Shown piece by piece: positions 40,501 to 64,000 of a stretch of 64,000 nucleotides of DNA (within the stretch, counting starts at the first letter, position 1; each line of letters opens with the position of its first letter). This stretch comes from Squalus acanthias. Lineage: Eukaryota. Where the stretch lies: assembly GCA_030390025.1 (NCBI GenBank), contig CM059431.1, forward strand, positions 150,972,001 through 151,036,000, given 5' to 3'. Under the pieces are notes generated by a model, which was given only the letters and a program-made list of their open reading frames with translations, searched no databases and was not told the DNA's origin. The position numbers and the translations under genes are program-made.

Positions 40501-42075
40501 CGGCCTCAGCTTGCCGTGACGCTCTTGGAGCAGCACGGCGCTTAAGCTGTCTCCGCTGGCAGCTACCTCCAGGAAAAACTCCTTCCCCCCATCTATGGCC
40601 CCTAAGGCTGGCGCGGTCTGCAGATCCCTTTTTAACTTCTCGAAGGCTGCTTGGCAGCCCTCGTCCCAAAGCCACTCTACTCCCTTATGGAGGAGTCGGA
40701 GGAGCGGCGCCGCTGTGGCCGCATAATCCTCGATAAAATCCCTGCAGTAACCGGTCAGTCCCAAGAAGGACCTCACACCCCTTACGTTGTTGGGAATCGG
40801 TAATTCTTGCACCGACTCCCTCCTTGCTTTGTCTATGGCTCTTTCCCCAGCGCGTAGGGTCAGTCCCAGGAATTTTACTTCCTGCTGACCGATACGTGCT
40901 TTCTTTGGGTTTACTTTAAAACCCTTTCTCGCTAACAGCTCCAATAACTCGTCCAGTAGTGGTCCGTGCTCCTCCCTTGAGTCCGTAAATAGGAGCAAAT
41001 CATCCACATACTGTACTATCTGATTGGGCTGACTAAACTCCTTTAAACTTCCTGCCATACACTGGTGAAAAATACTGGGGCTATTGTGGAAACCCTGTGG
41101 CAAGCAGTTCCACGTGTACTGTTGCCCTTTAAACGTAAAGGCAAACTTGTACTGGTCCTCTCGCCGCAGCGGGATGGACCAAAAACCGTTCGAGATATCC
41201 AGCACCGTGAACGTGGTCGCGGACGCTGGGATGCTCCCTATTAGGTCAGCAACTGCTGCTACTGTGGGCGCGCAGGCGGGGATGTTACTGTTAAGGACTC
41301 TGTAGTCCACCGTGGCTCTCCACGAATTATCCGGCTTCCTAACCGGCCATAATGGGGAGTTCACGTGTGTGGCTATCGGCCTCAACACGCCCTGCTGCAC
41401 CAAGGAAGACATTGCTGCCTCCATATCGGGTTCTGCTTCTTTGGGGAAGTTATACTGCTTTTGGGGTCGGGTCATGGGGTCCCCATCTACGCTGACCTCA
41501 AACCCGACCACCCTCCCACAATCGTGCTTGTGGGTTGCAAACGCGTGCATATTATCTGTCACGTACGTTTGCATGTCCGTTGGGACATCTGCGACCATAA
41601 GCCTGAGGTCGTAGCCTCCGGATGGCTGTACGGTACACAGGACCCCTGTTTCTTCCTCCCCTTGAATTACCATTACCTCGCCTTTTTCACCTTTAGCCCC
41701 CCAGAGACAGTGATTTCTGAGGTCCACGAGGATCCCGTGTCCCGCTAGCAGATCGGACCCGAGAATACCTCTTCCACCCCCCTTTTGCCATGCCATCAGT
41801 ATACACTTCCACTTAAGGCGAAGTGTCCCTAAACGAATGGATAGCGGGAGGGAAAACGTGCCAGCCTGTTCTTTCCCTGTGAACCCTGCTAGCGTGAATG
41901 GGACCTTGGTAGATAGCGGCGAGTCAAAAGGGTCATCTGTATGGATTATGGTGCAAGAAGCTCCCGTGTCCAACAAATAACTGCCCTTTTGTTTCTCTAC
42001 CTCCATCTCCACCACAGGTCGCCTCCACGCATCATAGCTGAGCGGACACAGGTAGACGGGCTGTGCTGGTTCTAG
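37534..42075 (-). CDS. pol: Pol polyprotein (protease, RT, tether RNase H, RNase H, integrase, C-terminal extension), in frame with gag
   Basis: LLDTGA; LDISNGFWSIPL, LPQGFHNSP, YVDD (40999-41010); degenerate RNase H LEVAAS...YSSRVL; second RNase H YVDGS, AQQAEL, SDS, GNRQADALA; HHCC and D,D-35-E (IDYIGP, SDQGSHF, GIVERMN); GPY. The frame is open from directly after the gag stop. Confidence 0.95.
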   Translation of the reverse strand, partial: LEPAQPVYLCPLSYDAWRRPVVEMEVEKQKGSYLLDTGASCTIIHTDDPFDSPLSTKVPFTLAGFTGKEQAGTFSLPLSIRLGTLRLKWKCILMAWQKGGGRGILGSDLLAGHGILVDLRNHCLWGAKGEKGEVMVIQGEEETGVLCTVQPSGGYDLRLMVADVPTDMQTYVTDNMHAFATHKHDCGRVVGFEVSVDGDPMTRPQKQYNFPKEAEPDMEAAMSSLVQQGVLRPIATHVNSPLWPVRKPDNSWRATVDYRVLNSNIPACAPTVAAVADLIGSIPASATTFTVLDISNGFWSIPLRREDQYKFAFTFKGQQYTWNCLPQGFHNSPSIFHQCMAGSLKEFSQPNQIVQYVDDLLLFTDSREEHGPLLDELLELLARKGFKVNPKKARIGQQEVKFLGLTLRAGERAIDKARRESVQELPIPNNVRGVRSFLGLTGYCRDFIEDYAATAAPLLRLLHKGVEWLWDEGCQAAFEKLKRDLQTAPALGAIDGGKEFFLEVAASGDSLSAVLLQERHGKLRPVVYSSRVLTDVERSFSNCERHLLATHWAVKRSAIFTGLSPITLLTHHTPTKMLLDGRIKDGTVSSARIARWTLLLSQLDIRVKGLCEPRLAANLVYPGTAHRCSVEGVWDVNIGLRAGIHPTGREIYVDGSSTVSAGERLTGCGVYDPAADLALAIKLPSTMSAQQAELSAVVYVVTHPDIFPTPYTICSDSMFTCNSCTEYLAIWSRRGYTSADGRPLTVKPLLEKILAAAVGEEGEIFIHKVKAHSSTEPRGEGNRQADALAREGARDGTFWNPYRTGPIAAVRGGDGNTGNTRVALPLDLKTVQAQDPALKAVLKTIAEGRQVEGPCSTATLSVKEGMLFREEQWVVPQQHRREFLQLAHEGPGAGHPGPEVTWQRVEQAGWWPGLREQVREFCANCLVCAANNPDPQKRKVPMGHVRRVEGPWQSIQIDYIGPLPTTQGGYKYCLVLVDVFSKWVEAFPCRTATALGTAKILVREVFSRWGLPRFVESDQGSHFTGQVMQNTLMLLGIEGKWHVAHNPQSSGIVERMNRTLKEKLRKETRNSPQKWAEVLPLVLMGVRASQSKSTGYSPHEVMTGRLMRTPTHVLAPVLTEGQLQEISRDKFAQTLLERLKQVYEQAAGNMGRQHQGNRLLLEPRKTREWEVGDQVMVRNYARVGSLEPLYMGPYNIVDKASSMVYAVKVPRRTKWFHINQCKLYQPGAQGKTTGVNPANGKTQPQVGPQGTQAGVAACIRGRDIPDDHAAFFWSWGLDDEDPRVPWSDEDSADEHSDDDGWFQRNGLGGLGPLGRDPYGVDTQAAGPDSRRKELEEAGPAAMWFPEVWPPALNVQSSGEAEFASEGPPAGPSRAGPRTASPEVREAESAEAGLAPVMEPQVIPLKVSGPGPSVTEPPPIAIPRRSSRVPQPRKMWSGPQAAPGRKFQVKITRVETGHIEAVTGCGRSEERVSAATGCGRSEERVSAATGCGRSEGRVSALPPSGRARSSLLRI
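37583..37699 (-). repeat. 3 x 39-bp in-frame tandem repeat at the Pol C-terminus
   Basis: Encodes A(V/A)TGCGRSE(E/G)RVS three times. Confidence 0.9.
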
Positions 42076-43887
42076 TCATGGGGCACTATTAGACGGTCCT
42101 GCGGCACCTACGGGGCCGGTTGCGACCGCCACCTGTCCACGCGCATTCAAAACCATCTTGCGCATGACTCCTAACACTGCTTCGAGGTCTTCGGGAGAGG
42201 TGGGTGCCTTTGCTTCCTTAGCCGGGACAGGCGCCTGGGTTCGGACCGCGGGATTTTTATCCTTGGAATCCTTCCAAGGGTTCCTGCAGTGCTTGCGCCA
42301 GTGCCCTGTCTTCCCACACCCGTAACAGGCATTACTTGCCTGTGGGGCGCGATTACCCTCCTGATGCCACTCTCTTTGAGTCGGGGCTGCGGGTCGTACC
42401 TCATGTACTCTTCCCTTAAAGGGACGTGTCGTCATACACCTTATGTTACGGTAACCCAACGTGAGTCGATTCAAGACCGACTCTTCCGTAAGGTTGAGGT
42501 CATTGGGATCGAACCAGGCTTTTGCCTGCTCTCTAACGGCTGGTAAACTGTTGGCTATTATGCACCTAAGCCAATGAATTAAAGCGGCGCCTTCCACATC
42601 TTCGCGCTCGGGCGCACCTAGACAGCTGCGCTCATATACTGGCCACAGCCTGTCGGCAAAAACCTTCGGGGGTTCTCCCTCCATCTGCACTGTCTGTCCC
42701 ACTCTAGCAAACGGACCTCCGTCGTTCGCTCCCACTACTTCTAGGACCTCATTTTTCAATTCCTCATAACTTTTATTACCCCTCTTGCTATCGCCTGAGA
42801 GACACTGAAGGACCGAGCTATCTAGTGAGAACAGCAGCATTTTTGCTGTCTCCCCATCATCGCAGCCGTTAATGGCTGCGGCTTGCTCAACTTCCCTGAA
42901 ATGTACGGAAGGGTCGTCTATCTCGGTCAGCTTCCTTACGTGGTTTATCATGGCCCTCAGCTGATGTGAACTGTGAGGCAACACCAGCTGTCCGAGGAGA
43001 TCCCCCGGTTCTTCCCCACCGTTTCTGCTTGGGCCCCTTTTAATACCCGTTACTGGATACAACGATCCCTTTTCTACCTCCTTTTCAACGGGCTCTTTTG
43101 CTTCTTCCGTTGCTTCCTCCCTAACCCAGGTTTCTGAATAGCTGGGTGGCGCGGAGGGCGCAGTGGCTACTACTTCTCCTGCTTTACTTGGTGGGGAATT
43201 TCTAAATCTCTCATTCACTAGTGGCTGGCGCGCCGACGGATTAATAAGGCACACCATGCCGTTCGCATTATTCACGGCCTTTTTGAGGCTCTCTATCTCT
43301 TTTTCGCAGGCGCTATGGTCGGCTCCCTGAAACTTATCCTCAAGGGCCAACTTATACGCCGACCTGACCGCCATTAAGCTCTCTTCTTGAGTTCTTATCT
43401 GGGCAGCTTGACGGTTACATCTTTCCTTCATCCTACTCTCGTTTAATTTTGCTTCAGTGATCTGGCACTCGAGATACTCTACCCTTGTTTTAAGGTAACT
43501 GGAGACTTCCTGGCTTTCCTGGCGTAACTCATTTAAACTCTTAATGAGCGCCTCCCCTCCAGAAACCTTCTCCTCCATTTCCTCCTCTAACTGCTTGATT
43601 CGAGCGGTTAGCGCTGTATTGGTCTGGTTTGAAATCTGAACCTGCCTTTTGTAGCACATAAGCCAGACTGCTTTCTCAACTGCCTTTTTATGCTCCTTAC
43701 TATCAGTCCACCTTTCAGCTGCCTCTAGTGGGCTCTTATCCGCTAACAATTCGCTTATCCACTTTTTCGTTAGATTAACCTTTCCAAACACGTAATCCGC
43801 TATCTTTTCCTGCATCACATTTCGTACAGTCATTCCATAATCTAACACACTACCCTCTCGCTGCCAGTGTCCTGCCGCGGTCGCCAT
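42076..43887 (-). CDS. gag: Gag polyprotein, 603 aa
   Basis: N-terminal coiled-coil-like region, PSAPPSY late motif (43138-43158), capsid-like central region and a single CCHC knuckle CYGCGKTGHWRKHC (42286-42327). Confidence 0.92.
   Translation of the reverse strand: MATAAGHWQREGSVLDYGMTVRNVMQEKIADYVFGKVNLTKKWISELLADKSPLEAAERWTDSKEHKKAVEKAVWLMCYKRQVQISNQTNTALTARIKQLEEEMEEKVSGGEALIKSLNELRQESQEVSSYLKTRVEYLECQITEAKLNESRMKERCNRQAAQIRTQEESLMAVRSAYKLALEDKFQGADHSACEKEIESLKKAVNNANGMVCLINPSARQPLVNERFRNSPPSKAGEVVATAPSAPPSYSETWVREEATEEAKEPVEKEVEKGSLYPVTGIKRGPSRNGGEEPGDLLGQLVLPHSSHQLRAMINHVRKLTEIDDPSVHFREVEQAAAINGCDDGETAKMLLFSLDSSVLQCLSGDSKRGNKSYEELKNEVLEVVGANDGGPFARVGQTVQMEGEPPKVFADRLWPVYERSCLGAPEREDVEGAALIHWLRCIIANSLPAVREQAKAWFDPNDLNLTEESVLNRLTLGYRNIRCMTTRPFKGRVHEVRPAAPTQREWHQEGNRAPQASNACYGCGKTGHWRKHCRNPWKDSKDKNPAVRTQAPVPAKEAKAPTSPEDLEAVLGVMRKMVLNARGQVAVATGPVGAAGPSNSAP
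43869..43886 (-). promoter_or_regulatory. Candidate primer-binding site TGGCGACCGCGGCAGGAC (tRNA-Ser-like, imperfect)
   Basis: Begins with TGG 5 nt after the 5' LTR. Shares TGGCG....CGGCAGGA with the complement of vertebrate tRNA-Ser 3' ends as recalled; not searched. Confidence 0.6.
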
Positions 43888-43891
43888 TTTC

Positions 43892-45488
43892 TGTAAGGGA
43901 TTCTCTCCTGACCCTGCGTGTCTCGTAGCCTGTGAGGTTCACGCGGCTCTGTGCAGCCTGTATGTCAGTGCGTGTCTAGGCCTGGTCTCCAGCCAGTCTG
44001 GGAACACTAGACACCCCTGTGAGTGGTTCGAATCACTCTCCCTTACGGTTCTAGACACTGGACTTAGATGCGAGAGCAGTAATGGAGATAAAACTCATGT
44101 AGACTTGGTTTGAACGGTACGAAATGGAAAATCTTTATTGCATGATACTTAAAATTATGAAATACATGTCATATGCACAGATTAATGACAGTACAATCTT
44201 ACAAACGGTTATAATCACTCTTAGGGAAACGAGGAACGACCAGCACAACGTAAATAGGGCACACATTACAAATATCCTTAATCTTTAAACCCTCCCCTAT
44301 CAATGTCTATCCTAAACTAGCTTCGTAGGATCCCGAGACTCATGCTCACCACTCGTAATAACTCGGAGAAATCCCGAATGGTTGATCGGATGTTTTTCAC
44401 CGCAGCACCTACGTGTTGGTCAGGAGATCTCCTGGTCCCACTTGTTTACTGCTTCTGCTGCTCGGTCAGTCGGCTGGACCGTCCGCTGTAGTGAAGACCT
44501 CTGTTGGTTGGATACAAGGTATGGTGGAGCACCGTTGTCAATATCGCTGATACGATGTGTTTGCACAGTCCAGTTATCTTCGATGCAATATGTCTTGTTA
44601 AAGAAGAAAACTTCCTGTCGAGAAGACTTGGCTGATCGACCTACAGGCGCGGTCGGGATCTACTGACCGTGGCGATGGATAAGGTCTTCTTCTCTTCTCC
44701 TCTCATCTCATCTCATCTCATCTCATCCCGGGCCTTCGGTTCCGCTGCCAGCTACCAACATAGGTCTTTGCAACAGTCTTTTACACAGGAGCAGCCACGA
44801 TGATAACAGCAACAAGCGGCAAGAGTCAAGAACATGAGGCAAGAGCAAGAGCAAGAGGCCAGAGAGAGAATGGACGGTTTGGGGCCTGCAATTATAGTGC
44901 ACAGTTCTTCTGTTTCCCGCCCAACTACAATGTCCATTCTTTTGTTTAAGGTTTGGCGCCCAAAATGTCCTGTATGGGTGATCTCTGTCCTTAATGGGTT
45001 TCGGGGCTACTCCTGAATGTTTGAGTACCTGTTAATATTTCTCCCATTGTTAAATCGGTCGGTGTTCCCCCTGGAGGGGTTTGGGGCTTCCAAGTGTCCT
45101 GTATAACTACCTGCTAACGGCTCTCTCATCGTAGAGCCGTTGGGAGTTTACATATTAATGTCCTTTGGATGGGCCCTTGATGGCTTTCCTTTGTACCTGG
45201 GAGACCGATTCCAGTATCGATGTTTATACTGTAAACCCATAATGTCCTGTGTAATTGTCTTCACTGTGCTGAATCGTTATCGATCTTGCAAGAATGTTTA
45301 TTGGAACGCCATCTTGTCTGCCTGCTGAAAAGTCTAGAATGTTCTGTCACGCGGTGCGGCGGCCATTTTACAGGCTGCTTGTGTCCAATTTAAACCTGAC
45401 AGCATTCCGCTGAAATAAAAGCTGTTTTGAACGAAACTTTGTGTTTTCTCCTCATTAAAATGAAATCGCGATAATTGCGAATTCTACA
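43892..45488 (-). repeat. 5' LTR (1597 bp)
   Basis: Direct repeat of 32898-34494, lying adjacent to the PBS and the gag start. Confidence 0.97.
44890..44897 (-). promoter_or_regulatory. Candidate TATA box in the 5' LTR (copy near 33896-33903)
   Basis: CTATAATT on the minus strand, followed about 20-30 nt later by the pyrimidine-rich CCATTCTCTCTCTGGCCTCTTGC. Confidence 0.45.
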
Positions 45489-48400
45489 CCTGGGTCTATT
45501 TCCCCTGGGTCTCTTTTCCCCTGGGTCTCTTTCCCCTGTGTCTCTATTCCCCTGAGTCTCTTTCCCCTGCGTCTCTTTTCCCCTGAGTCCCTTTTACCCT
45601 GGGTCTCTTTCCCCTGGTTCTCTTTTCACTTAGTCTACTTTACCCTGGGTCTCTTTCCCCTGGGTCTATTTTCCACTGGTTCTCTTTCCCCTGGGTCTAT
45701 TTTCCCCTGGGTCTCTATACCCAGGATTTCAATTCCCTGGGTCTCTTTTCCCTGGGTCTCTATTCCCATATTCTCATTTCCCCTGGGTCTCATTCAGCTG
45801 GGTATCTTTCCCCGGTTTCACTTTTATCCCAGGGTCTCTTACCCCTGGATCTCATTTCAATGGTCTCTTTCCCCTGGGTCTCTTTTCCCCTGGGCCACTT
45901 TCCCCTGGCTCTCATTTCCCTGGGTCTCTTTCCCCTGGGTCTCTATTCCCACGTTTCTTTTTTCCCCTGTGTCTCTTTCCCCTGGGTCTTTTTCCCCTGG
46001 GTGACTTTTCCCCTGGGTATCTTTTCCCCTATGTCTCTTTTCCGCTGTGTCTCTGTCCCCTGGGTCTCTTACCACTGGGTCTCTTTTCAAAAGGGACTAT
46101 TTCCCCTGTGTCTCTTTTCCCCTGGGTCCCATTTCCACAGCGTCTCTTTCCCCGGGGTCTCTTTTCCCCTGGGTCTCTTTTCCCCTGTTTTTCTTTCCCC
46201 TTTGTTTCTTTTACCCTGGGACTCTTTTCCCCTGGGTCTCTTTCCCCTGGGTCTCTTTCCCCTGGGTCTCTTTCCCCTGGGTCTCTTTCCCCTGGGTCTC
46301 TTTTCCCCTGGTTCTCTTTCACCTGGCTCTCAATTCCCCACGGTCTCTTTCCCCTGTGTCTCTTTTCACAATTCTCTTTTCCCCTGGGACTCTTTCCCCT
46401 GGGCCTCTTTTCCCCTTGGGTCTCTTTCCCCTGGATCTCTTTTCCCCTGGGTCTCTTTCCCCTGGATTTCATTTCCATGGGTCTCTTTCCCCTGGGTCTC
46501 TATTCCCATGGGTCTCGTTTCCCCTGTGTCTCATTCAACTGGGTTTCTTCCCCCTGTGTCACTTTTTCCCCTGTGACCCTTATCCCCGGGTCACTTGTCC
46601 CCTGTGTGTCTTACCCCTGCATCTCATTTCCATGGGACTCTTTCCCCTGGGTCTCTTTTCCCCTGGGTCTGTTTCTCACTCTGTCACATTCCCCTGTGTT
46701 TTTTACCCACGGTCGCTTTCTCCAGGGTCTCTTTTCCCCTGTGTCTATTTCCACCTCTGTCTCATTACCCGGGTTTTTTTCCCCTGGCTCTCTTTCCCCT
46801 GAGTCTCTTTTCCCCTTGTTCTCTTTCCACTGGGTCTATTTTCCCCTGGTTCTCTTTCCCCTGGGTCTCATTTCCCCACGGTCTCTTTCCCCTGGGTCTC
46901 TTTTCACATGGTCTATTTTCCCCTGGGACTCTTTCCCCTGAGGCTCTTTTCCCCTGCGTCTCTTTCCCCTGTATCTCATTTCCCTGGGTCTCTTTCTCCC
47001 TGTGTCTCATCACCTGGGTATCTTTCCCCGGTGTCACTTTTTCCCCTGGGTCTCTTTCCCCCTCTGTCTCATACCCCTTGGTCTCCTTCCGCTGGGTCTC
47101 TTTCCCCTGGGTCTCTTTCCCCTGGATTTCATTTCCCTGGGTCTCTTTCCATTGGGTCTCTATTCCTATGGGTCTCGTTTCACCTGTGTCTCATTCAACC
47201 GGGTTTCTTCCCCCGGTGTCACTTTTTCCCCTGGGTCCATTATCCCCGGGTCTCTTTTCCCCTGGGTGTCTTACCCCTGGATCTCATTTCCATGGGACTC
47301 TTTCCCCTGGGTCTCTTTTCCCCTGGGTCTCTTTCCCCTGGGACTCTTTTTCCCCTGGGGCTTTTTTTCCCCTGGGTCTCTTTCCCCTGGATTTCATTTC
47401 CCTGGGTCTCTTTCCCCTGGGTCTCTTTTCCCCTGGGTCTCTTTCCCCTGGGTCTCTATTCCCATGGGTCTCGTTTCCCCTGTGTCTCATTCAACTGGGT
47501 ATCTTCCCACGGTGTCACTTTTTCCCCTGGTTCCCTTTTCCCAGGGTCTATTTTCCCCTGGGTCTCTTTCCCCCTCTGTCTCATTCCCCTGGGTTTTTTC
47601 CCCTGGGTCACTCTTCCCTGCGTCTATTTTCCCCTGGGTCTCTTTCCCCCTCTGTCTCATTCCCTTGTATTTTCCCCCCTGGGTCTCTTTCCCCAGGTTC
47701 TCTTTTCCCCTGGGTCTCTTTTCCCTGGAACTCTTTTCCCCTTGGTTTCTTTCCCCTGGGTCTCTTTTCCACTGGTTCTCTTTCCCCTGGGTCTCATTTC
47801 CCCACGGTCTCTTTCCCCTGGGTCTCTTTTCACATAGTCTCTTTTACCCTGGGACTCATTCCCCTGGGGCTCTTTTACCTGGATCTCATTTCCCTGGGTC
47901 TCTTTCCCCTGGGACTCTTTCCCCTGTGTCTCTTACCCCTGGATCACTTTTCCACTGGGTCTCTTTCCCCCTCTGTCTCATACCCCTTGGTCTCTTTCCG
48001 CTGGGTCTCTTTCCCCTGGGTTTTTTTCCCCTGGGTCTCTTTTCCCTTGGGTCTCTTTCCCCCTCTGTCTCATACCCATTGGTCTCATTCCACTGGGTCT
48101 CTTTCCCCTGTGTCTCTTTTCCCTGGGTCTATTTTCCACTGGTTCTCTTTCCCCTGGGTCTGTTTTCCCCTGGGTCTCTATACCTGGATTTCAATTCTCT
48201 GCGTCTCTTTTCCCTGGGTCTCTATTCACATGTGTCTCTTTTCCACTGGGTCTCATTCAGCTGGGTATCTTTCCCCGGTTTCACTTTTATCCCTGGGTCC
48301 CTTTTCCCCTGTGTTTCTTTTCCCCAGGGTCTCTTACCCCTGGATCTCATTTCCCTGGTCTCTTTCCCCTTGGTCTCTTTTCCCCTGGGCCACTTTCCCC

Positions 48401-51400
48401 TGACTCTCATTTCCCTGGTTCTCTTTCCCCTGGGTCTCTATTCCCACGTTTCTTTTTTCCCCTGTGTCTCATTCCCCTGGGTCTAATTCCCCTGGGTCTC
48501 TTTTACCCTATGTCTCTTTTCCCCTGTGTCTCTGTCCCCTGGTTCTCTTACCACTGGGTCTCTTGTCAAAAGGGTCTATTTCCCCTGTGTCTCGTTTCCC
48601 CTGGGTCCCATTTCCACAGGGTCTCTTTCCCCTGGGTCTCTTTTCCCCTGGGTCTCTTTTCCCCTGTTTTTCTTTCCCCTGGGTCTTTATCCCCTGGGTC
48701 TCTTATCCCCTGGTTCTCTTTCACCTGGCTCTCATTTCCCCACGGTCTCTTTCCCCTGTGTCGCTTTTCACAATTCTCTTTTCCCCTTGGGTCTCTTTCC
48801 CCTGGATCTCTTTTCCCCTGGGTCTCTTTCCCCTGGATTTCATTTCCATGGGTCTCTTTCCCCTGGGTCTCTATTCCCATGGGTCTCGTTTCCCCTGTGT
48901 CTCATTCAACTGGGTTTCTTCCCCCTGTGTCACTTTTTCCCCTGTGACCCTTATCCCCGGGTCACTTGTCCCCTGTGTGTCTTACCCCTGCATCTCATTT
49001 CCATGGGACTCTTTCCCCTGGGTCTCTTTTCCCCTGGGTCTGTTTCTCACTCTGTCACATTCCCCTGTGTTTTTTACCCACGGTCGCTTTCCCCAGGGTC
49101 TCGTTTCCCCTGTATCTATTTCCACCTCTGTCTCATTACCCGGGGTTTTTTCCCCTGGCTCTCTTTCCCCTGAGTCTCTTTTCCCCTTGTTCTCTTTCCA
49201 CTGGGTCTATTTTCCCCTGGTTCTCTTTCCCCTGGGTCTCATTTCCCCACGGTCTCTTTCCCCTGGGTCTCTTTTCACATGGTCTATTTTCCCCTGGGAC
49301 TCTTTCCCCTGAGGCTCTTTTCCCCTGCGTCTCTTTCCCCTGTATCTCATTTCCCTGGGTCTCTTTCCCCCTGTGTCTCATCACCTGGGTATCTTTCCCC
49401 GGTGTCACTTTTTCCCCTGGGTCTCTTTCCCCCTCTGTCTCATACCCCTTGGTCTCCTTCCGCTGGGTCTCTTTCCCCTGGGTCTCTTTCCCCTGGATTT
49501 CATTTCCCTGGGTCTCTTTCCATTGGGTCTCTATTCCCATGGGTCTCGTTTCACCTGTGTCTCATTCAACTGGGTTTCTTCCCCCGGTGTCACTTTTTCC
49601 CCTGGGTCCATTATCCCCGGGTCTCTTTTCCCCTGGGTGTCTTACCCCTGGATCTCATTTCCATGGGACTCTTTCCCCTGGGTCTCTTTTCCCCTGGGTC
49701 TCTTTCCCCTGGGACTCTTTTTCCCCTGGGGCTTTTTTTCCCCTGGGTCTCTTTCCCCTGGATTTCATTTCCCTGGGTCTCTTTCCCCTTGGTCTCTTTT
49801 CCTCTGGGTCTCTTTCCCCTGGGTCTCTATTCCCATGGGTCTCGTTTCCCCTGTGTCTCATTCAACTGGGTATCTTCCCACGGTGTCACTTTTTCCCCTG
49901 GTTCCCTTTTCCCAGGGTCTTTTTTCCCCTGGGTCTCTTTCCCCCTCTGTCTCATTCCCCTGGGTTTTTTCCCCTGGGTCACTCTTCCCTGCGTCTATTT
50001 TCCCCTGGGTCTCTTTCCCCCTCTGTCTCATTCCCTTGTATTTTCCCCCCTGGGTCTCTTTCCCCAGGTTCTCTTTTCCCCTGGGTCTCTTTTCCCGGGA
50101 ACTCATTTCCCCTTGGTTTCTTTCCCCTGGGTCTCTTTTCCACTGGTTCTCTTTCCCCTGGGTCTCATTTCCCCACGGTCTCTTTCCCCTGGGTCTCTTT
50201 TCACATAGTCTCTTTTACCCTGGGACTCATTCCCCTGGGGCTCTTTTACCTGGATCTCATTTCCCTGGGTCTCTTTCCCCTGGGACTCTTTCCCCTGTGT
50301 CTCTTACCCCTGGATCACTTTTCCACTGGGTCTCTTTCCCCCTCTGTCTCATACCCCTTGGTCTCTTTCCGCTGGGTCTCTTTCCCCTGGGTTTTTTTCC
50401 CCTGGGTCTCTTTTCCCTTGGGTCTCTTTCCCCCTCTGTCTCATACCCATTGGTCTCATTCCACTGGGTCTCTTTCCCCTGTGTCTCTTTTCCCTGGGTC
50501 TATTTTCCACTGGTTCTCTTTCCCCTGGGTCTGTTTTCCCCTGGGTCTCTATACCTGGATTTCAATTCTTTGCGTCTCTTTTCCCTGGGTCTGTATTCAC
50601 ATGTGTCTCTTTTCCACTGGGTCTCATTCAGCTGGGTATCTTTCCCCGGTTTCACTTTTATCCCTGGGTCCCTTTTCCCCTTTGTTTCTTTTCCCCAGGG
50701 TCTCTTACCCCTGGATCTCATTTCCCTGGTCTCTTTCCCCTGGGTCTCTTTTCCCCTGGGCCACTTTCCCCTGACTCTCATTTCCCTGGTTCTCTTTCCC
50801 CTGGGTCTCTATTCCCACGTTTCTTTTTTCCCCTGTGTCTCATTCCCCTGGGTCTAATTCCCCTGGATCTCTTTTACCCTATGTCTCTTTTCCCCTGTGT
50901 CTCTGTCCCCTGGTTCTCTTACCACTGGGTCTCTTGTCAAAAGGGTCTATTTCCCCTGTGTCTCTTTTCCCCTGGGTCCCATTTCCACAGGGTCTCTTTC
51001 CCCTGGGTCTCTTTTCCCCTGGGTCTCTTTTCCACTGTTTTTCTTTCCCCTGGGTCTTTATCCCCTGGGTCTCTTATCCCCTGGTTCTCTTTCACCTGGC
51101 TCTCATTTCCCCACGGTCTCTTTCCCCTGTGTCGCTTTTCACAATTCTCTTTTCCCCTGGGACTCTTTCCCCTGGGCCTCTTTTCCCCTTGGGTCTCTTT
51201 CCCCTGGGTCTCTTTTCCCCTGGGTCTCTTTCCCCTGGATTTCATTTCCATGGGTCTCATTCCCCTGGGTCTCTATTCCCATGGGTCTCGTTTCCCCTGT
51301 GTCTCATTCAACTGGGTTTCTTCCCCCTGTGTCACTTTTTCCCCTGTGACCCTTATCCCCGGGTCACTTGTCCCCTGTGTGTCTTACCCCTGGATCTCAT

Positions 51401-54400
51401 TTCCATGGGACTCTTTCCCCTGGGTCACTTTTCCCCTGGGTCTCTTTCTCCCTCTGTCAGATTCCCCTTGTTTTTTTACCCATGGTCTCTTTCCCCAGGG
51501 TCTCTTTTCCCCTGTGTCTATTTCCACCTCTGTCTCATTACCCTGGGTTTTTTCCCCTGGGTCTCTTTCCCCTGAGTCTCTTTTCCCCTTGTTCTCTTTC
51601 CACTGGGTCTATTTTCCCCTGGTTCTCTTTCCCCTGTGTCTCATTTCCCCACGGTCTCTTTCCCCTGGGTCTCTGTTCACATGGTCTATTTTCCCATTGG
51701 GACTCTTTCCCCTGAGGCTCTTTTGCCCTGCGTCTCTTTCCCCTGTATCTCATTTCCCTGTGTCTCTTTCCCCCTGTGTCTCATCACCTGGGTATCTTTC
51801 CCCGGTGTCACTTTTTCCACTGGGTCCCTTTTACCCTGGGTATATTTTCCACTGGAACTCTTTCCTCTGGGTCTCTTTCCCCTGGATTTCATTTCCCTAG
51901 GTCTCTTTCCCGTGGGTCTCTATTCCCATGGGTCTCGTTTGCCCTGTCTCTCATTCAACTGGGTTTCTTCCCCCGGTGTAACTTTTTCCCCTGGGTGTCT
52001 TACCCCTGGATCTCATTTCCATGGGACTCTTTCCCCTGGGTCTCTTTTCTCCTTGGTCTCTTTCCCCCTCTGTCACATTCCCCTGGGTTTTTTACCCTTG
52101 GTCTCTTTCCCCAGGGTCAATTTTCCCCTGTGTCTATTTCCACCTCTGTCTCATTCCCCTGGGTTCTTTTCCCCTGGGTCTATTTTCCCGTGGTTCTCTT
52201 TCCCATGGGTCTCAGTTCCCCACGGTCTCTTTCCCCTGGGTCTCTTTTCACATAGTCTCTTTTCCCCTGGGACTCTTTCCCCTGGGGCTCTTTTCCCTGG
52301 ATCTCATTTCCCTGGGTCTCCTTCCCCTGGGACTCTTTCCCCTGGGTCTCTTTTCCCCTGTGTCTCTTACCCCTGGATCACTTTTCCACTGGGTCTCTTT
52401 CCCCCTCTGTCTCATACCCATTGGTCTCTTTCCACTGGGTCTCTTTCCCCTGTGTCTCTTTTCCCCTGGGTTTCTTTCCCCTGGGTCTATTTCCCCTGGA
52501 TCTATTTCCCCTGGGTCTCTTTTCCACAGGGTCTCTTTGCCCTGTGTCTCTATTCCCCTTGGTCTCTCTCCCCTGAGTCTCTTTCCCCTGCGTCTCTTTT
52601 CTCCTGGGTCCCTTTTACCCTGGGTCTCTTTCCCCTGCGTCTCTTTTCACTTAGTCTACTTTCCCCTGGGTCTCTTTCCCCTGGGTCTCTTTTCCACTGG
52701 TTCTCTTTCCCCTGGGTCTCTTTTCCCCTGGGTCTCTTTACCCTGGATTTCATATCCCTGGGTCTCTTTTCCCTGGGTCTCTATTCCCATGTGTCTCTTT
52801 TCCCCTGTGTCTCATTCAGCTGGGTTTCTTTCCCCGGTTTCACTTTTATCCCTGGGTCCCTTTTCCCCTGTGTTTCTTTTCCCCAGGGTCTCTTACCCCT
52901 GGATCTCATTTCCCTGGTCTCTTTACCCTGGGTCTCTTTTCCCCTGTGTCCCTTTTAACAAGTCTCTTTTTCCCTGGGACACTTTTTCCCCTGGGGCTCT
53001 TTTTCCCCTGGGTCTCTTTTCCCCTGGATCTCTTTCCACTTGGTCTCTTTTCCCCTGGGGCTCTTTCCCCTGGCTCTTATTTCCCTGTTTCTTTTTCCCC
53101 TGGGTCTCTATTCCCACGGTTCTCTTTTCCCCTGTGTCTCATTCCCCTGGGTCTTTTTCCCCTGGGGCTCGTTTACCCTGGGTCCCTTTCCCCCTGGGTA
53201 TCTTTTCCCCTATGTCTCTTTTCCCCTGTGTCTCTGTCCCCTGGGTCTCTTACCACTGGGTCTCTTTTCAAAAGGGTCTATTTCCCCTGTGTCTCTTTTC
53301 CCCTGGGTCCCATTTCCACAGGGTCTCTTTCCCCTGGGTCTCTTTTCACAATTCTCTTTTCCCCTGGGACTTTTTCCCCTGGGCCTCTTTTCCCCTTGGG
53401 TCTCTTTCCGCTGGGTCTATTTTCCCCTGGTTCTCTTTCCCCTGGGTCTCATTTCCCCACGGTCTCGTTCCCCTGGGTCTATTTTCACATGGTCTCTTTT
53501 CCACTGGGACTCTTTCCCCTGGGGCTCTTTTCCCCTGCGCCTCTTTCCCCTGTATCTCATTTCCCCACGGTCTCTTTCCCCCTGTGTCTCATCACCTGGG
53601 TATGTTTCCCCGTTGTCACTTTTTCCACTGGGTCCCTTTTACCCTGGGTATATTTTCCACTGGAACTCTTTCCTCTGGGTCTCTTTTCCCCTGGGTCTCT
53701 TTCCCCCTCTGTCTCATACCCCTTGGTCTCCTTCCGCTGGGTCTCTTTCCCCTGGGTCTCTTTCCCCTGGATTTCATTTCCCTGGGTCTCTTTCCCCTGG
53801 GTCTCTGTTCCCATGGGTCTCTTTCCACTGGGTCACTTTTCCCTACGTCTCTTTCGACCTGGGTATCTTCCCCCAGTGTCTCTTTTTCCCCTGGGTCCCT
53901 TATCCCCGGGTCTCTTTTCCCCTGGGTGTCTTACCCCTGGATCTCATTTCCATGGGACTCTGTCCCCTGGGTCTCTTTTCTCCTGTGTCTATTTCCACCT
54001 CTGTCTCATTCCCCTGTTCTTTTTTTCCCCTGGGTCTCTTTCCCCTGAGTCTCTTTTCCCCTTGTTCTCTTTCCCCTGGGTCTATTTTCCCCTGGTTCTC
54101 TTTCCCCTGGGTCTCATTTCCACACGGTCTCTTTCCCCTGGGTCTCTTTTCACGTAGTCTCTTTTCCCCAGGGACTCTTTCCCCTGGGGCTCTTTTCCCC
54201 TGCGTCTCTTTCCCCCTGTGTCTCAGTCACCTGGGTATCTTTCCCCGGTGTCTCTTTTTCCCCTGGGTCCCTTTGACCCTGGGTATATTTTCCGCTGGAA
54301 CTCTTTCCACTGGTTCTCTTTTCCCCAGGGTCTCCTTCCCCCTCTGTCTCATACCCATTGGTCTCCTTCCGCTGGGTCTCTTTCCCCTGTTTTTTTTCCC

Positions 54401-57400
54401 CTGGTTCTCTTTTCCCCTGGGTCTCTTTCCCCTGGGTCTCTTACCCCTGGATCTCATCCCTGTGTCTCTTTCCCCTGGGTCTCTTTTCCCCTGGGTCTCT
54501 TTCCCCTGGGTCACTTTTCCACTGGTGCACTTTCCCCTGGGTTTCATTTCCCCTGGGTCTCTTTTCACGGAGTCTCTTTACCCCTGGGTCTCTTTCCCCT
54601 GGGTCACTTTTCCACTGCTGCACTTTCCCCTGGGTTTCATTTCCCCTGGGTCTCTTTCCACTGGGTCTCTTTTCCCCTTGCTCTCTTTCCCCCTGGGTCT
54701 CTTTTCCCCTTGTTCTCTTACCCCTGTGTCTCATTTCCCCTGGGTCACTTTCCCCATGGTCTCTTTTCCCCTGGGTCACATTCCCCTGGATCTCAATTCG
54801 CTGGGTCTCTTTCCCCTGGGTCTCTATTCCCTTTGGTCACTTTTCCCCTTTGTCTCATTCCCTTGGGTATCTTTCCCCTGTGTCTCTTTTTTCCCTGGGT
54901 TACTTTTCCCCTGGGTATCTCTTCGCCGGGACTCTTTCCCCTGGGTCTCTTTCCCCTGGTTCTTTTTTCCCCTGGGTCTATTTCCCCTGAGTCTCTTCAC
55001 CCTGGGTATCATTTCCCCTGGGTCTCTTTTCCCTGGATATCATTACCTTGGGTCTCTCTTCCCATAGGTCTCTTTTCCCCTGTGTCTCATTCCTCTGGGT
55101 CACTTTCCCCTGGGTCTCTTTTCCACTTGGCCTCTTTCCCCTGGGTCTCGTTTCCCCTGGTTCTCTTTCCCCTGGGTCTCATTTCCACACGGTCTCTTTC
55201 CCCTGTGTCTCTTTTCACATAGTCTCTTTTCACCTGGGACTCTTTCCCATGGGGCTCTTTTCCCCTGAGTCTCTTTCCCCTGGATCTCATTTCCCTGGGC
55301 CTCTTTCCCCTGGGTCTCTATTACCACGGGTCTCTTTTCCCCTGTGTCTCATTCACCTAGTTATCTTTCCCCTGTGTCACCTTTTCACCAGGGTCCCTTT
55401 TCCCCTGGGTATCTTTCACCCTGGTACTCCTTCCCCTGTGTCTCTTTTCCCCTGGGTCTCTTACCCATGGATCTCATTTACCTTGGTCTCTTTTCCCCTA
55501 GGTCTCTTTCCCCTGGTCTCTTTCCCCCTGGTTCTCGTTCCCATGGGTCTCTTTTACCTGGGTCTCTTTCCCCTGGGTCTCTTTTCCCTGGGTCTCTATT
55601 CCCATGTGTCTATTTTCCCCTGTGTCTCATTCCCTTGGGTAACTTTCCCCTGTGTCACTTTTTCCCCTGGGTCGCTTTTCCCCTTGGTATCATTTCCCCT
55701 GGGTCTTTTTCCCCTGGGTCTCTTTTCCCCTGGGTCTCATTCCCCTGGGTCTCTTTCCCCTGGGACTCTTTCCCCTGTGTCTCTTACCCCTGGATCACTT
55801 TTCCACTGGGTCTCTTTCCCCCTCTGTCTCATACCCCTTGGTCTCTTTCCGCTGGGTCTCTTTCCCCTGGGTTTTTTTCCCCTGGGTCTCTTTTCCCTTG
55901 GGTCTCTTTCCCCCTCTGTCTCATACCCATTGGTCTCATTCCACTGGGTCTCTTTCCCCTGTGTCTCTTTTCCCTGGGTCTATTTTCCACTGGTTCTCTT
56001 TCCCCTGGGTCTGTTTTCCCCTGGGTCTCTATACCTGGATTTCAATTCTCTGCGTCTCTTTTCCCTGGGTCTCTATTCACATGTGTCTCTTTTCCACTGG
56101 GTCTCATTCAGCTGGGTATCTTTCCCCGGTTTCACTTTTATCCCTGGGTCCCTTTTCCCCTGTGTTTCTTTTCCCCAGGGTCTCTTACCCCTGGATCTCA
56201 TTTCCCTGGTCTCTTTCCCCTTGGTCTCTTTTCCCCTGGGCCACTTTCCCCTGACTCTCATTTCCCTGGTTCTCTTTCCCCTGGGTCTCTATTCCCACGT
56301 TTCTTTTTTCCCCTGTGTCTCATTCCCCTGGGTCTAATTCCCCTGGGTCTCTTTTACCCTATGTCTCTTTTCCCCTGTGTCTCTGTCCCCTGGTTCTCTT
56401 ACCACTGGGTCTCTTGTCAAAAGGGTCTATTTCCCCTGTGTCTCGTTTCCCCTGGGTCCCATTTCCACAGGGTCTCTTTCCCCTGGGTCTCTTTTCCCCT
56501 GGGTCTCTTTTCCCCTGTTTTTCTTTCCCCTGGGTCTTTATCCCCTGGGTCTCTTATCCCCTGGTTCTCTTTCACCTGGCTCTCATTTCCCCACGGTCTC
56601 TTTCCCCTGTGTCGCTTTTCACAATTCTCTTTTCCCCTTGGGTCTCTTTCCCCTGGATCTCTTTTCCCCTGGGTCTCTTTCCCCTGGATTTCATTTCCAT
56701 GGGTCTCTTTCCCCTGGGTCTCTATTCCCATGGGTCTCGTTTCCCCTGTGTCTCATTCAACTGGGTTTCTTCCCCCTGTGTCACTTTTTCCCCTGTGACC
56801 CTTATCCCCGGGTCACTTGTCCCCTGTGTGTCTTACCCCTGCATCTCATTTCCATGGGACTCTTTCCCCTGGGTCTCTTTTCCCCTGGGTCTGTTTCTCA
56901 CTCTGTCACATTTCCCTGTGTTTTTTACCCACGGTCGCTTTCCCCAGGGTCTCGTTTCCCCTGTATCTATTTCCACCTCTGTCTCATTACCCGGGGTTTT
57001 TTCCCCTGGCTCTCTTTCCCCTGAGTCTCTTTTCCCCTTGTTCTCTTTCCACTGGGTCTATTTTCCCCTGGTTCTCTTTCCCCTGGGTCTCATTTCCCCA
57101 CGGTCTCTTTCCCCTGGGTCTCTTTTCACATGGTCTATTTTCCCCTGGGACTCTTTCCCCTGAGGCTCTTTTCCCCTGCGTCTCTTTCCCCTGTATCTCA
57201 TTTCCCTGGGTCTCTTTCCCCCTGTGTCTCATCACCTGGGTATCTTTCCCCGGTGTCACTTTTTCCCCTGGGTCTCTTTCCCCCTCTGTCTCATACCCCT
57301 TGGTCTCCTTCCGCTGGGTCTCTTTCCCCTGGGTCTCTTTCCCCTGGATTTCATTTCCCTGGGTCTCTTTCCATTGGGTCTCTATTCCCATGGGTCTCGT

Positions 57401-60400
57401 TTCACCTGTGTCTCATTCAACTGGGTTTCTTCCCCCGGTGTCACTTTTTCCCCTGGGTCCATTATCCCCGGGTCTCTTTTCCCCTGGGTGTCTTACCCCT
57501 GGATCTCATTTCCATGGGACTCTTTCCCCTGGGTCTCTTTTCCCCTGGGTCTCTTTCCCCTGGGACTCTTTTTCCCCTGGGGCTTTTTTTCCCCTGGGTC
57601 TCTTTCCCCTGGATTTCATTTCCCTGGGTCTCTTTCCCCTTGGTCTCTTTTCCTCTGGGTCTCTTTCCCCTGGGTCTCTATTCCCATGGGTCTCGTTTCC
57701 CCTGTGTCTCATTCAACTGGGTATCTTCCCACGGTGTCACTTTTTCCCCTGGTTCCCTTTTCCCAGGGTCTTTTTTCCCCTGGGTCTCTTTCCCCCTCTG
57801 TCTCATTCCCCTGGGTTTTTTCCCCTGGGTCACTCTTCCCTGCGTCTATTTTCCCCTGGGTCTCTTTCCCCCTCTGTCTCATTCCCTTGTATTTTCCCCC
57901 CTGGGTCTCTTTCCCCAGGTTCTCTTTTCCCCTGGGTCTCTTTTCCCGGGAACTCATTTCCCCTTGGTTTCTTTCCCCTGGGTCTCTTTTCCACTGGTTC
58001 TCTTTCCCCTGGGTCTCATTTCCCCACGGTCTCTTTCCCCTGGGTCTCTTTTCACATAGTCTCTTTTACCCTGGGACTCATTCCCCTGGGGCTCTTTTAC
58101 CTGGATCTCATTTCCCTGGGTCTCTTTCCCCTGGGACTCTTTCCCCTGTGTCTCTTACCCCTGGATCACTTTTCCACTGGGTCTCTTTCCCCCTCTGTCT
58201 CATACCCCTTGGTCTCTTTCCGCTGGGTCTCTTTCCCCTGGGTTTTTTTCCCCTGGGTCTCTTTTCCCTTGGGTCTCTTTCCCCCTCTGTCTCATACCCA
58301 TTGGTCTCATTCCACTGGGTCTCTTTCCCCTGTGTCTCTTTTCCCTGGGTCTATTTTCCACTGGTTCTCTTTCCCCTGGGTCTGTTTTCCCCTGGGTCTC
58401 TATACCTGGATTTCAATTCTTTGCGTCTCTTTTCCCTGGGTCTGTATTCACATGTGTCTCTTTTCCACTGGGTCTCATTCAGCTGGGTATCTTTCCCCGG
58501 TTTCACTTTTATCCCTGGGTCCCTTTTCCCCTTTGTTTCTTTTCCCCAGGGTCTCTTACCCCTGGATCTCATTTCCCTGGTCTCTTTCCCCTGGGTCTCT
58601 TTTCCCCTGGGCCACTTTCCCCTGACTCTCATTTCCCTGGTTCTCTTTCCCCTGGGTCTCTATTCCCACGTTTCTTTTGTCCCCTGTGTCTCATTCCCCT
58701 GGGTCTAATTCCCCTGGATCTCTTTTACCCTATGTCTCTTTTCCCCTGTGTCTCTGTCCCCTGGTTCTCTTACCACTGGGTCTCTTGTCAAAAGGGTCTA
58801 TTTCCCCTGTGTCTCTTTTCCCCTGGGTCCCATTTCCACAGGGTCTCTTTCCCCTGGGTCTCTTTTCCCCTGGGTCTCTTTTCCACTGTTTTTCTTTCCC
58901 CTGGGTCTTTATCCCCTGGGTCTCTTATCCCCTGGTTCTCTTTCACCTGGCTCTCATTTCCCCACGGTCTCTTTCCCCTGTGTCGCTTTTCACAATTCTC
59001 TTTTCCCCTGGGACTCTTTCCCCTGGGCCTCTTTTCCCCTTGGGTCTCTTTCCCCTGGGTCTCTTTTCCCCTGGGTCTCTTTCCCCTGGATTTCATTTCC
59101 ATGGGTCTCATTCCCCTGGGTCTCTATTCCCATGGGTCTCGTTTCCCCTGTGTCTCATTCAACTGGGTTTCTTCCCCCTGTGTCACTTTTTCCCCTGTGA
59201 CCCTTATCCCCGGGTCACTTGTCCCCTGTGTGTCTTACCCCTGGATCTCATTTCCATGGGACTCTTTCCCCTGGGTCACTTTTCCCCTGGGTCTCTTTCT
59301 CCCTCTGTCAGATTCCCCTTGTTTTTTTACCCATGGTCTCTTTCCCCAGGGTCTCTTTTCCCCTGTGTCTATTTCCACCTCTGTCTCATTACCCTGGGTT
59401 TTTTCCCCTGGGTCTCTTTCCCCTGAGTCTCTTTTCCCCTTGTTCTCTTTCCACTGGGTCTATTTTCCCCTGGTTCTCTTTCCCCTGTGTCTCATTTCCC
59501 CACGGTCTCTTTCCCCTGGGTCTCTGTTCACATGGTCTATTTTCCCATTGGGACTCTTTCCCCTGAGGCTCTTTTGCCCTGCGTCTCTTTCCCCTGTATC
59601 TCATTTCCCTGTGTCTCATTCAACTGGGTATCTTCCCACGGTGTCACTTTTTCCCCTGGTTCCCTTTTCCCAGGGTCTTTTTTCCCCTGGGTCTCTTTCC
59701 CCCTCTGTCTCATTCCCCTGGGTTTTTTCCCCTGGGTCACTCTTCCCTGCGTCTATTTTCCCCTGGGTCTCTTTCCCCCTCTGTCTCATTCCCTTGTATT
59801 TTCCCCCCTGGGTCTCTTTCCCCAGGTTCTCTTTTCCCCTGGGTCTCTTTTCCCGGGAACTCATTTCCCCTTGGTTTCTTTCCCCTGGGTCTCTTTTCCA
59901 CTGGTTCTCTTTCCCCTGGGTCTCATTTCCCCACGGTCTCTTTCCCCTGGGTCTCTTTTCACATAGTCTCTTTTACCCTGGGACTCATTCCCCTGGGGCT
60001 CTTTTACCTGGATCTCATTTCCCTGGGTCTCTTTCCCCTGGGACTCTTTCCCCTGTGTCTCTTACCCCTGGATCACTTTTCCACTGGGTCTCTTTCCCCC
60101 TCTGTCTCATACCCCTTGGTCTCTTTCCGCTGGGTCTCTTTCCCCTGGGTTTTTTTCCCCTGGGTCTCTTTTCCCTTGGGTCTCTTTCCCCCTCTGTCTC
60201 ATACCCATTGGTCTCATTCCACTGGGTCTCTTTCCCCTGTGTCTCTTTTCCCTGGGTCTATTTTCCACTGGTTCTCTTTCCCCTGGGTCTGTTTTCCCCT
60301 GGGTCTCTATACCTGGATTTCAATTCTTTGCGTCTCTTTTCCCTGGGTCTGTATTCACATGTGTCTCTTTTCCACTGGGTCTCATTCAGCTGGGTATCTT

Positions 60401-63400: not shown

Positions 63401-64000
63401 CCTGGGTATATTTTCCACTGGAACTCTTTCCTCTGGGTCTCTTTTCCCCTGGGTCTCTTTCCCCCTCTGTCTCATACCCCTTGGTCTCCTTCCGCTGGGT
63501 CTCTTTCCCCTGGGTCTCTTTCCCCTGGATTTCATTTCCCTGGGTCTCTTTCCCCTGGGTCTCTGTTCCCATGGGTCTCTTTCCACTGGGTCACTTTTCC
63601 CTACGTCTCTTTCGACCTGGGTATCTTCCCCCAGTGTCTCTTTTTCCCCTGGGTCCCTTATCCCCGGGTCTCTTTTCCCCTGGGTGTCTTACCCCTGGAT
63701 CTCATTTCCATGGGACTCTGTCCCCTGGGTCTCTTTTCTCCTGTGTCTATTTCCACCTCTGTCTCATTCCCCTGTTCTTTTTTTCCCCTGGGTCTCTTTC
63801 CCCTGAGTCTCTTTTCCCCTTGTTCTCTTTCCCCTGGGTCTATTTTCCCCTGGTTCTCTTTCCCCTGGGTCTCATTTCCACACGGTCTCTTTCCCCTGGG
63901 TCTCTTTTCACGTAGTCTCTTTTCCCCAGGGACTCTTTCCCCTGGGGCTCTTTTCCCCTGCGTCTCTTTCCCCCTGTGTCTCAGTCACCTGGGTATCTTT
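45489..64000 (+). repeat. 15/16-bp satellite CCCCTGGGTCTCTTT(T) with multi-kb higher-order duplications
   Basis: Tandem units. Near-identical blocks occur at offsets of 2371, 7851, 1907 and 9758 bp, seen as duplicated ORF translations (46595/48966/56817; 50881/58732/60639; 51636/61394). Confidence 0.97.

Follow-up and report, generated by a model that had tools for sequence, protein, structure and literature searches.

How does a retrovirus provide its polymerase when gag ends in a stop codon and pol follows in the same frame? The question is raised by a stretch of 64,000 nt from Squalus acanthias (the window; all coordinates refer to it, and positions of the type +n count nucleotides downstream of the gag stop), which carries on its minus strand a young endogenous retrovirus (ERV) with three open frames, gag, pro-pol and env. 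The answer that we favour, with a probability of roughly three in four, is that Gag-Pol is made by programmed readthrough of the alphavirus type (type II of Beier and Grimm), assisted by a long rod-like RNA stem, in an ERV of deep-branching descent. The features on which the argument turns are the following.

42076..43887, minus strand: gag, 603 aa, with a coiled coil, a capsid-like region and one CCHC knuckle, ending in TGA (labels by sequence reading)
37534..42075, minus strand: pro-pol, 1513 codons in the gag frame, with protease, reverse transcriptase (RT), tether RNase H, RNase H and integrase (Pfam)
42072..42078, minus strand: UGA-CUAG readthrough context (sequence reading)
42067..42075, minus strand: 9-nt spacer separating the stop from the first stable pair (fold prediction)
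41860..42066, minus strand: predicted unbranched rod stem-loop, +10 to +216, 207 nt (fold prediction)
42009..42069, minus strand: short hairpin proposed earlier, +7 to +67, mutually exclusive with the rod

The junction (42081-42067, minus strand) reads CCA TGA CTA GAA CCA, with the TGA at 42078-42076, and a single frame runs across it, open for 620 codons before the stop and for 1513 after it. The first-pass annotation of this DNA had described this end of gag and a frame continuing into the protease, and it was right: counted from its start codon at 43887, the fusion comprises 603 + 1 + 1513 = 2117 codons. The heptamer TGACTAG is found a single time on the two strands of the 64 kb, and from the codon usage of gag-pol (CTA 1.1%, codons starting with G 37%) CTA-G would be expected after a stop in about 0.4% of cases. 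A UGA followed by CUA or CGG with an open frame downstream is the type II arrangement and is present here; the UAG-G context of type III, the gammaretroviral one, is not. That UGA-CUAG is the leaky context of alphaviruses and cellular genes, as had been pointed out from the letters alone, agrees with type II in a 2026 review (PMC13517186; this paper as well as PMC3159437, PMC7947760, PMC8278194 and PMC2194720 are cited here from excerpts), according to which UGACUAG by itself yields at least about 1.3% readthrough. Frameshifting was dismissed, as it is unnecessary when gag and pol share a frame; there is a single slippery-like heptamer, 345 nt upstream of the junction.

Does the same signal occur elsewhere? 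Junctions were read by hand from published nucleotide sequences, and the frame was likewise counted by hand. A separate gag is annotated in 7 of the 24 lokiretrovirus consensus sequences (supplement to PMC7947760, excerpt), and all seven stop-bearing Loki junctions that were read, six from this set plus Loki-Cne, have TGA-CTA[A/G] with the protease in frame: TGA-CTAG in Loki-Ofa, -Cne, -Pyo and -Sau, and TGA-CTAA in Loki-Dcl, -Lro and -Bsp, the consensus of the last slipping by one base farther downstream. Loki-Tfu, read at the protein level, has X-L-S at the position of the stop. Gag and Pol are annotated as fused in Loki Oja, Sri, Ame, Sme, Str, Pma, Npa and Xla (PMC7947760), and the fused Loki-Pfl carries CGA-CTAA at the junction position, i.e., the opal-to-arginine variant known in alphaviruses. 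A defective class III ERV of a bullfrog (Pyxicephalus), a relative of XtERV-S, has TGA-CTAG at the end of gag, which is unremarked in the part of its published text that we consulted. Because Loki and bullfrog ERV junctions share it with the element studied here, the UGA-CUA signal is, as judged from these sequences, present in at least three lineages. By eye, a hairpin of roughly 50 nt can be drawn for Loki-Ofa, -Pyo, -Sau, -Bsp and -Pfl, in which the loop falls at +35 to +38 and one pair shows G-C/G-U/A-U exchange; the junctions of amphibian Loki elements look unlike this type.

The arrangement resembles the opal codon between nsP3 and nsP4 of alphaviruses such as Sindbis virus (SINV) and Venezuelan equine encephalitis virus (VEEV), where UGA-CUA or UGA-CGG is followed by a spacer of 8–9 nt and a stem whose 3' partner lies more than 100 nt away, where this stem stimulates readthrough up to 10-fold (PMC3159437), and where the polymerase is a minor extension product; the CGA sense variant of alphaviruses has its counterpart in Loki-Pfl. 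In contrast, the alphaviral stem of 10–12 bp closes a long loop, whereas the signal described here is retroviral and a continuous 79-bp rod is predicted over the active-site codons of the protease. Like Moloney murine leukaemia virus (MoMLV), walleye dermal sarcoma virus and snakehead retrovirus, the element has a single in-frame stop, located after the nucleocapsid knuckle and ahead of the protease DTG, which here follows the gag stop at a distance of 35 codons. Of 39 reference retroviral loci, 13 have a long open frame closed by an in-frame stop just ahead of the protease, and these stops, unlike the TGA-CTA found here, are TAG-G in twelve cases, TGA-A in one and TGA-CTA in none. In position the gag stop of the element matches them, a point in favour of programming. 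The earlier remark was that gammaretroviruses use a UAG with a pseudoknot; a compact pseudoknot is the stimulator in MoMLV (PMC13517186). SSSV, ZFERV, RMEV and XtERV-S, all from aquatic hosts, also have a UGA between in-frame gag and pol, which in XtERV-S is expected by its authors to be suppressed (PMC8278194), but in the contexts UGAAGA, UGACGA, UGAAGU and, for XtERV-S, TGA-CAG.

Teaching accounts of readthrough in retroviruses usually present a UAG followed by a pseudoknot. The excerpt of the 2026 review names UGACUA only for chikungunya virus, SINV, PSIV and cellular genes, gives UGAAGA, UGACGA and UGAAGU as the only retroviral UGA cases, regards retroviral readthrough as unverified outside gammaretroviruses and does not mention lokiretroviruses or retrotransposons (PMC13517186). 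Neither readthrough, nor a stop codon, nor frameshifting is mentioned in the main texts of PMC7947760 and PMC9040795, CUAG is not mentioned in PMC8310308, and the open-access literature, as distinct from subscription journals and Repbase, yielded no paper on lokiretrovirus readthrough or on TGACTA gag-pol readthrough in ERVs. The first-pass view of the signal as atypical for a retrovirus thus holds for the literature searched but not for the sequences themselves, given TGA-CTA[A/G] in published Loki and frog ERV junctions. Gag-Pol readthrough as such is known from retroviruses; the combination of an alphavirus-type signal with an unusually long predicted stem appears to be new to the literature searched.

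What might assist the leaky stop? Folding with ViennaRNA, which does not predict pseudoknots, gives an unbranched rod of 79 bp (44 G-C, 28 A-U and 7 G-U) with a free energy of -97.1 kcal/mol (z -5.11; none of 200 dinucleotide shuffles as good), and its apex carries the protease D-T-G codons (41970-41962). Its first stable pair is predicted at +10, in line with a type II 3' stem-loop 8–9 nt after the stop. Against random synonymous recodings the z score is -4.2 (0 of 200), and therefore codon choices contribute to the fold. The rod window has the lowest z score of 80 windows across gag-pol-env and is among the top three of 861 element windows by unbranched stem length, its own stem being the longest, ahead of 72 pairs for a stem in the long terminal repeat (LTR) and 69 pairs for one near the end of pol, in its tail. 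The rod is predicted stably in windows of 220–450 nt and also with 150 nt of upstream context, while its basal pairs weaken when 300 nt of upstream context are included; in the 240-nt fold ensemble these pairs have a probability above 0.99.

The first-pass annotation had instead proposed a hairpin starting 6 nt after the stop. In isolation this hairpin does fold (a 63-nt segment starting at +7 reaches -27.3 kcal/mol, with the proposed outer stems present). Its dinucleotide z score is then -2.07, a value matched by 9 of 200 shuffles and ranking 29th of 2097 windows, and its synonymous-recoding z score is -3.57. Once 240 nt are folded, however, the eight pairs checked have a probability of 0.000 and their bases pair in the rod. 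The folding check suggested at the time predicts strong structure after the stop, while the short hairpin remained marginal (z -0.97 and 30 of 200 shuffles in an 89-nt window), and as the operative stimulator it gives way to the better predicted rod.

In the mechanism that we propose, most ribosomes would terminate at the UGA and release Gag. The CUAG would weaken termination, the base of the rod, located at the mRNA entrance of the ribosome, would raise decoding of the UGA by near-cognate tRNA, and a few percent of ribosomes would continue and produce Gag-Pol. The parts of this scheme do not stand equally firm. That UGA-CUAG is read through is very probable, and the earlier proposal of programmed readthrough at this site appears well supported by anatomy and comparison; that the rod is the stimulator is, on the strength of the fold predictions, somewhat more probable than its being a bystander.

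The alternative that survives best accepts readthrough and assigns it to UGA-CUAG alone or to the short hairpin, the rod acting as a shield against nonsense-mediated decay (NMD) or in packaging or export. Such a division of roles is conceivable, for UGACUAG has basal activity independent of structure (PMC13517186), the short hairpin folds alone and could form first as the ribosome clears the region, and the teleost Loki junctions show a hairpin of only about 50 nt by eye. Rous sarcoma virus offers a precedent for an NMD shield: a stability element has been tied to its gag stop in print and reportedly lies behind it. We nevertheless consider this explanation less likely, since the rod begins at +10, where the stimulators of alphaviruses and murine leukaemia virus begin (PMC3159437, PMC13517186), and since its basal pairs are predicted with near certainty.

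If, on the other hand, Pol were made as foamy viruses make it, from an mRNA that is spliced or separately initiated, or if the stop were bypassed in a non-canonical manner as in Tca2, readthrough would not be needed. A methionine 12 codons ahead of the catalytic aspartate could serve as a separate start, and Tca2, a copia element of Candida albicans and member of an unrelated family, shares the in-frame UGA between gag and pol and illustrates that such a codon is not necessarily read through by virtue of its flanks (PMC2194720). An independent start is difficult to reconcile with the junction, because the first methionine of pol comes late (codon 24, with the catalytic Asp of DTG at codon 36), because the conserved protease strand RPVVEMEV starts upstream of it and would be truncated, and because no acceptor-like tract was found within -400 to +120 of the stop, whereas env has a pyrimidine-rich acceptor-like CAG, identified by eye, right 5' of its ATG. 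Likewise, in 15 foamy-type loci the frame upstream of the stop of pol never stays open beyond 142 codons, which places gag there out of frame, whereas gag and pol are in frame here; the element thus lacks the spumaretrovirine arrangement, in which pol lies outside the gag frame and has its own start on a spliced mRNA. Of the six joints listed for contigs of four sequencing runs, none reads as GT-AG on the minus strand; a contig of low depth jumps over 41887-42045 and a diverged one over 41506-41940, and in neither case are the ends GT-AG. This second route to Pol is therefore improbable.

Least probable is a private nonsense mutation in a fused gag-pol, of the kind annotated in several lokiretroviruses and in P0007 of the element's own lineage, for three near-full-length Gag proteins of the skate Rhinoraja (of four cluster members; 51–52% identity) terminate at the same alignment column, five Pol relatives (P0004, P0005, P0006, P0008 and P0148) begin at a Met within the protease, which is what a preceding stop or change of frame would lead one to expect, the two LTRs show 99.6% identity and all three frames are open, the CTA-G context is rare by chance, and no fixed difference at the stop appears among the 40 best-supported of 654 variant places in contigs of the four runs, a weak point as cover of the exact base is not shown. 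By these comparisons the TGA is not the private mutation that the first pass had named as a refutation. In the same contig comparison none of the 40 places falls within 41560-42150, and depth is present over the junction bin, which is again weak since no listed piece spans the stop. The stretch was found in 20 of the 24 listed sequencing runs (11 studies, 7 organism codes).

Several observations weigh against readthrough assisted by the rod. The rod window was chosen after the fold had been seen, other windows also reach z scores of about -5 (80-window scan, 22 shuffles), and the rod is predicted from the sequence of one element. In comparison with a relative of 84% identity, 4 of 13 differences break a rod pair, with 54% expected, a weak figure that presupposes a best-case codon assumption. 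Searches of viral and metagenome contigs yielded no confirmed locus of the element's lineage, and none of the 32 listed contig pieces crosses the stop, the variant comparison being confined to its 40 best-supported places of 654. No RNA run is among the listed holders of the stretch, which has no bearing on expression. The coelacanth relative P0007 is annotated as a single fused frame, and in Tca2 the sequence around the junction did not by itself produce readthrough in a reporter (PMC2194720, excerpt). At the would-be stop position the fused P0007 model has Q-G-C-Q, recalling the UAG-G type. Going by this protein model, more than one stop context may occur within the lineage.

To which retroviruses does the element belong? 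It falls within Retroviridae as an ERV, and the named proteins closest to its Pol come from amphibians and the coelacanth and bear the label NYNRIN-like (45–46% identity). In an RT tree of 53 rows, a selection among some 290 proteins and 40 loci, it lies in a 41-row branch with foamy, gamma, delta and snakehead retrovirus-like references (100/96) and groups with the NYNRIN-like relatives in a set of 16 rows (86/92), the place of which within the retroviral branch is unsettled. We read it as an ERV of a deep-branching lineage. Loki rows, identified by motifs common with the consensus sequences of PMC7947760 (excerpt), form a separate branch (100/99) without it. Lokiretroviruses resemble the element in their dual RNase H, in TGA-CTA[A/G] at the gag end and, by eye, in env, but the RT motif is LPQGFHNSP here versus RCPFGYxNSP there, and the element has a short single protease region and a Gag CCHC knuckle. 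Identity as a lokiretrovirus was dropped in view of the RT tree, although the approximately unbiased test does not reject a tree joining the two (p 0.112); a position outside the lokiretroviruses is favoured, not proven. Gag relatives were found only in the skate Rhinoraja longicauda (51%), and Env relatives only in skate (75%) and sawshark (59%), a distribution that by itself would make a cartilaginous fish the probable host.

Tentatively, and at somewhat less than even odds, we suggest that retroviruses have a third route to Gag-Pol that has been overlooked, UGA-CUA with a long 3' stem, in use across deep branches (this cartilaginous-fish lineage, the class III frog ERV and teleost lokiretroviruses), either ancestral or repeatedly evolved, with opal/arginine switching as in alphaviruses and with the 207-nt rod, which buries protease active-site codons, as an unusually long stimulator. 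If true, retroviruses, alphaviruses and cellular genes would have converged on one recoding solution, laboratories working on recoding would gain new natural cassettes, and split or truncated pol in annotations of ERVs and lokiretroviruses would be accounted for. How the control of Gag-Pol evolved at the root of the retroviral tree becomes testable because fused, CGA and TGA states coexist in the lokiretrovirus sequences consulted.

The remaining anatomy is that of a recently integrated provirus.

43892..45488, minus strand: 5' LTR, 1597 bp, TGTA...TACA (matched with the 3' LTR)
43869..43886, minus strand: putative primer-binding site, beginning with TGG and overlapped by the gag ATG (sequence reading)
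34919..37270, minus strand: env, with an RQRR cleavage site and a C-terminal hydrophobic stretch (open frame)
34495..34503, minus strand: short purine tract preceding the 3' LTR (sequence reading)
32898..34494, minus strand: 3' LTR (matched with the 5' LTR)

The two LTRs differ by 6 mismatches over 1597 nt, and CAGG at both element ends, within a tandem repeat, is a likely target-site duplication. The primer-binding site presumably matches the 3' end of an arginine tRNA; no tRNA genes were found in the 64-kb window. The gag ATG lies only 5 nt past the 5' LTR (43869-43892, minus strand), with hardly any leader beyond the LTR, and Gag begins with MATAAGHW here and with MATTKGHW in the skate, a difference that would fit a switch from one arginine tRNA primer to another. 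Neither Gag against Pfam nor Env against Pfam and PDB, where a relation to Mononegavirales fusion proteins of the lokiretroviral kind was looked for, gave a significant match, the protease matches in pro-pol fall under the Pfam cut-offs, and Rfam gave no match at gathering level for 41500-45500. The viral-contig search returned one distant retrovirus of 10,688 nt (L001), which we take to be snakehead retrovirus from its UAG-GGC junction and its length; its env match was non-significant. The Atlas returned only one chordate cluster, at 0.84, and the structure model of Env has a predicted local distance difference test score of 30.6, too low for use. By eye, the N-terminal region of Env is Ig-like and patches resemble the env of L001 and of Loki elements.

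Pol extends about 280 residues beyond the integrase core in an acidic, proline-rich tail (37534-38400, minus strand) that holds three 39-bp repeats at 37580-37698. The 72-pair hairpin of the LTR is predicted at 44671-44886 (minus strand), just past a TATA-like box at the likely start of R, and its arms are CT-rich and GA-rich repeats. The window has an N gap at 29164-29363. The element lies inside long tandem repeats with purine/pyrimidine skew (15300-32900 and 45500-64000), and larger repeat units recur across 46000-64000.

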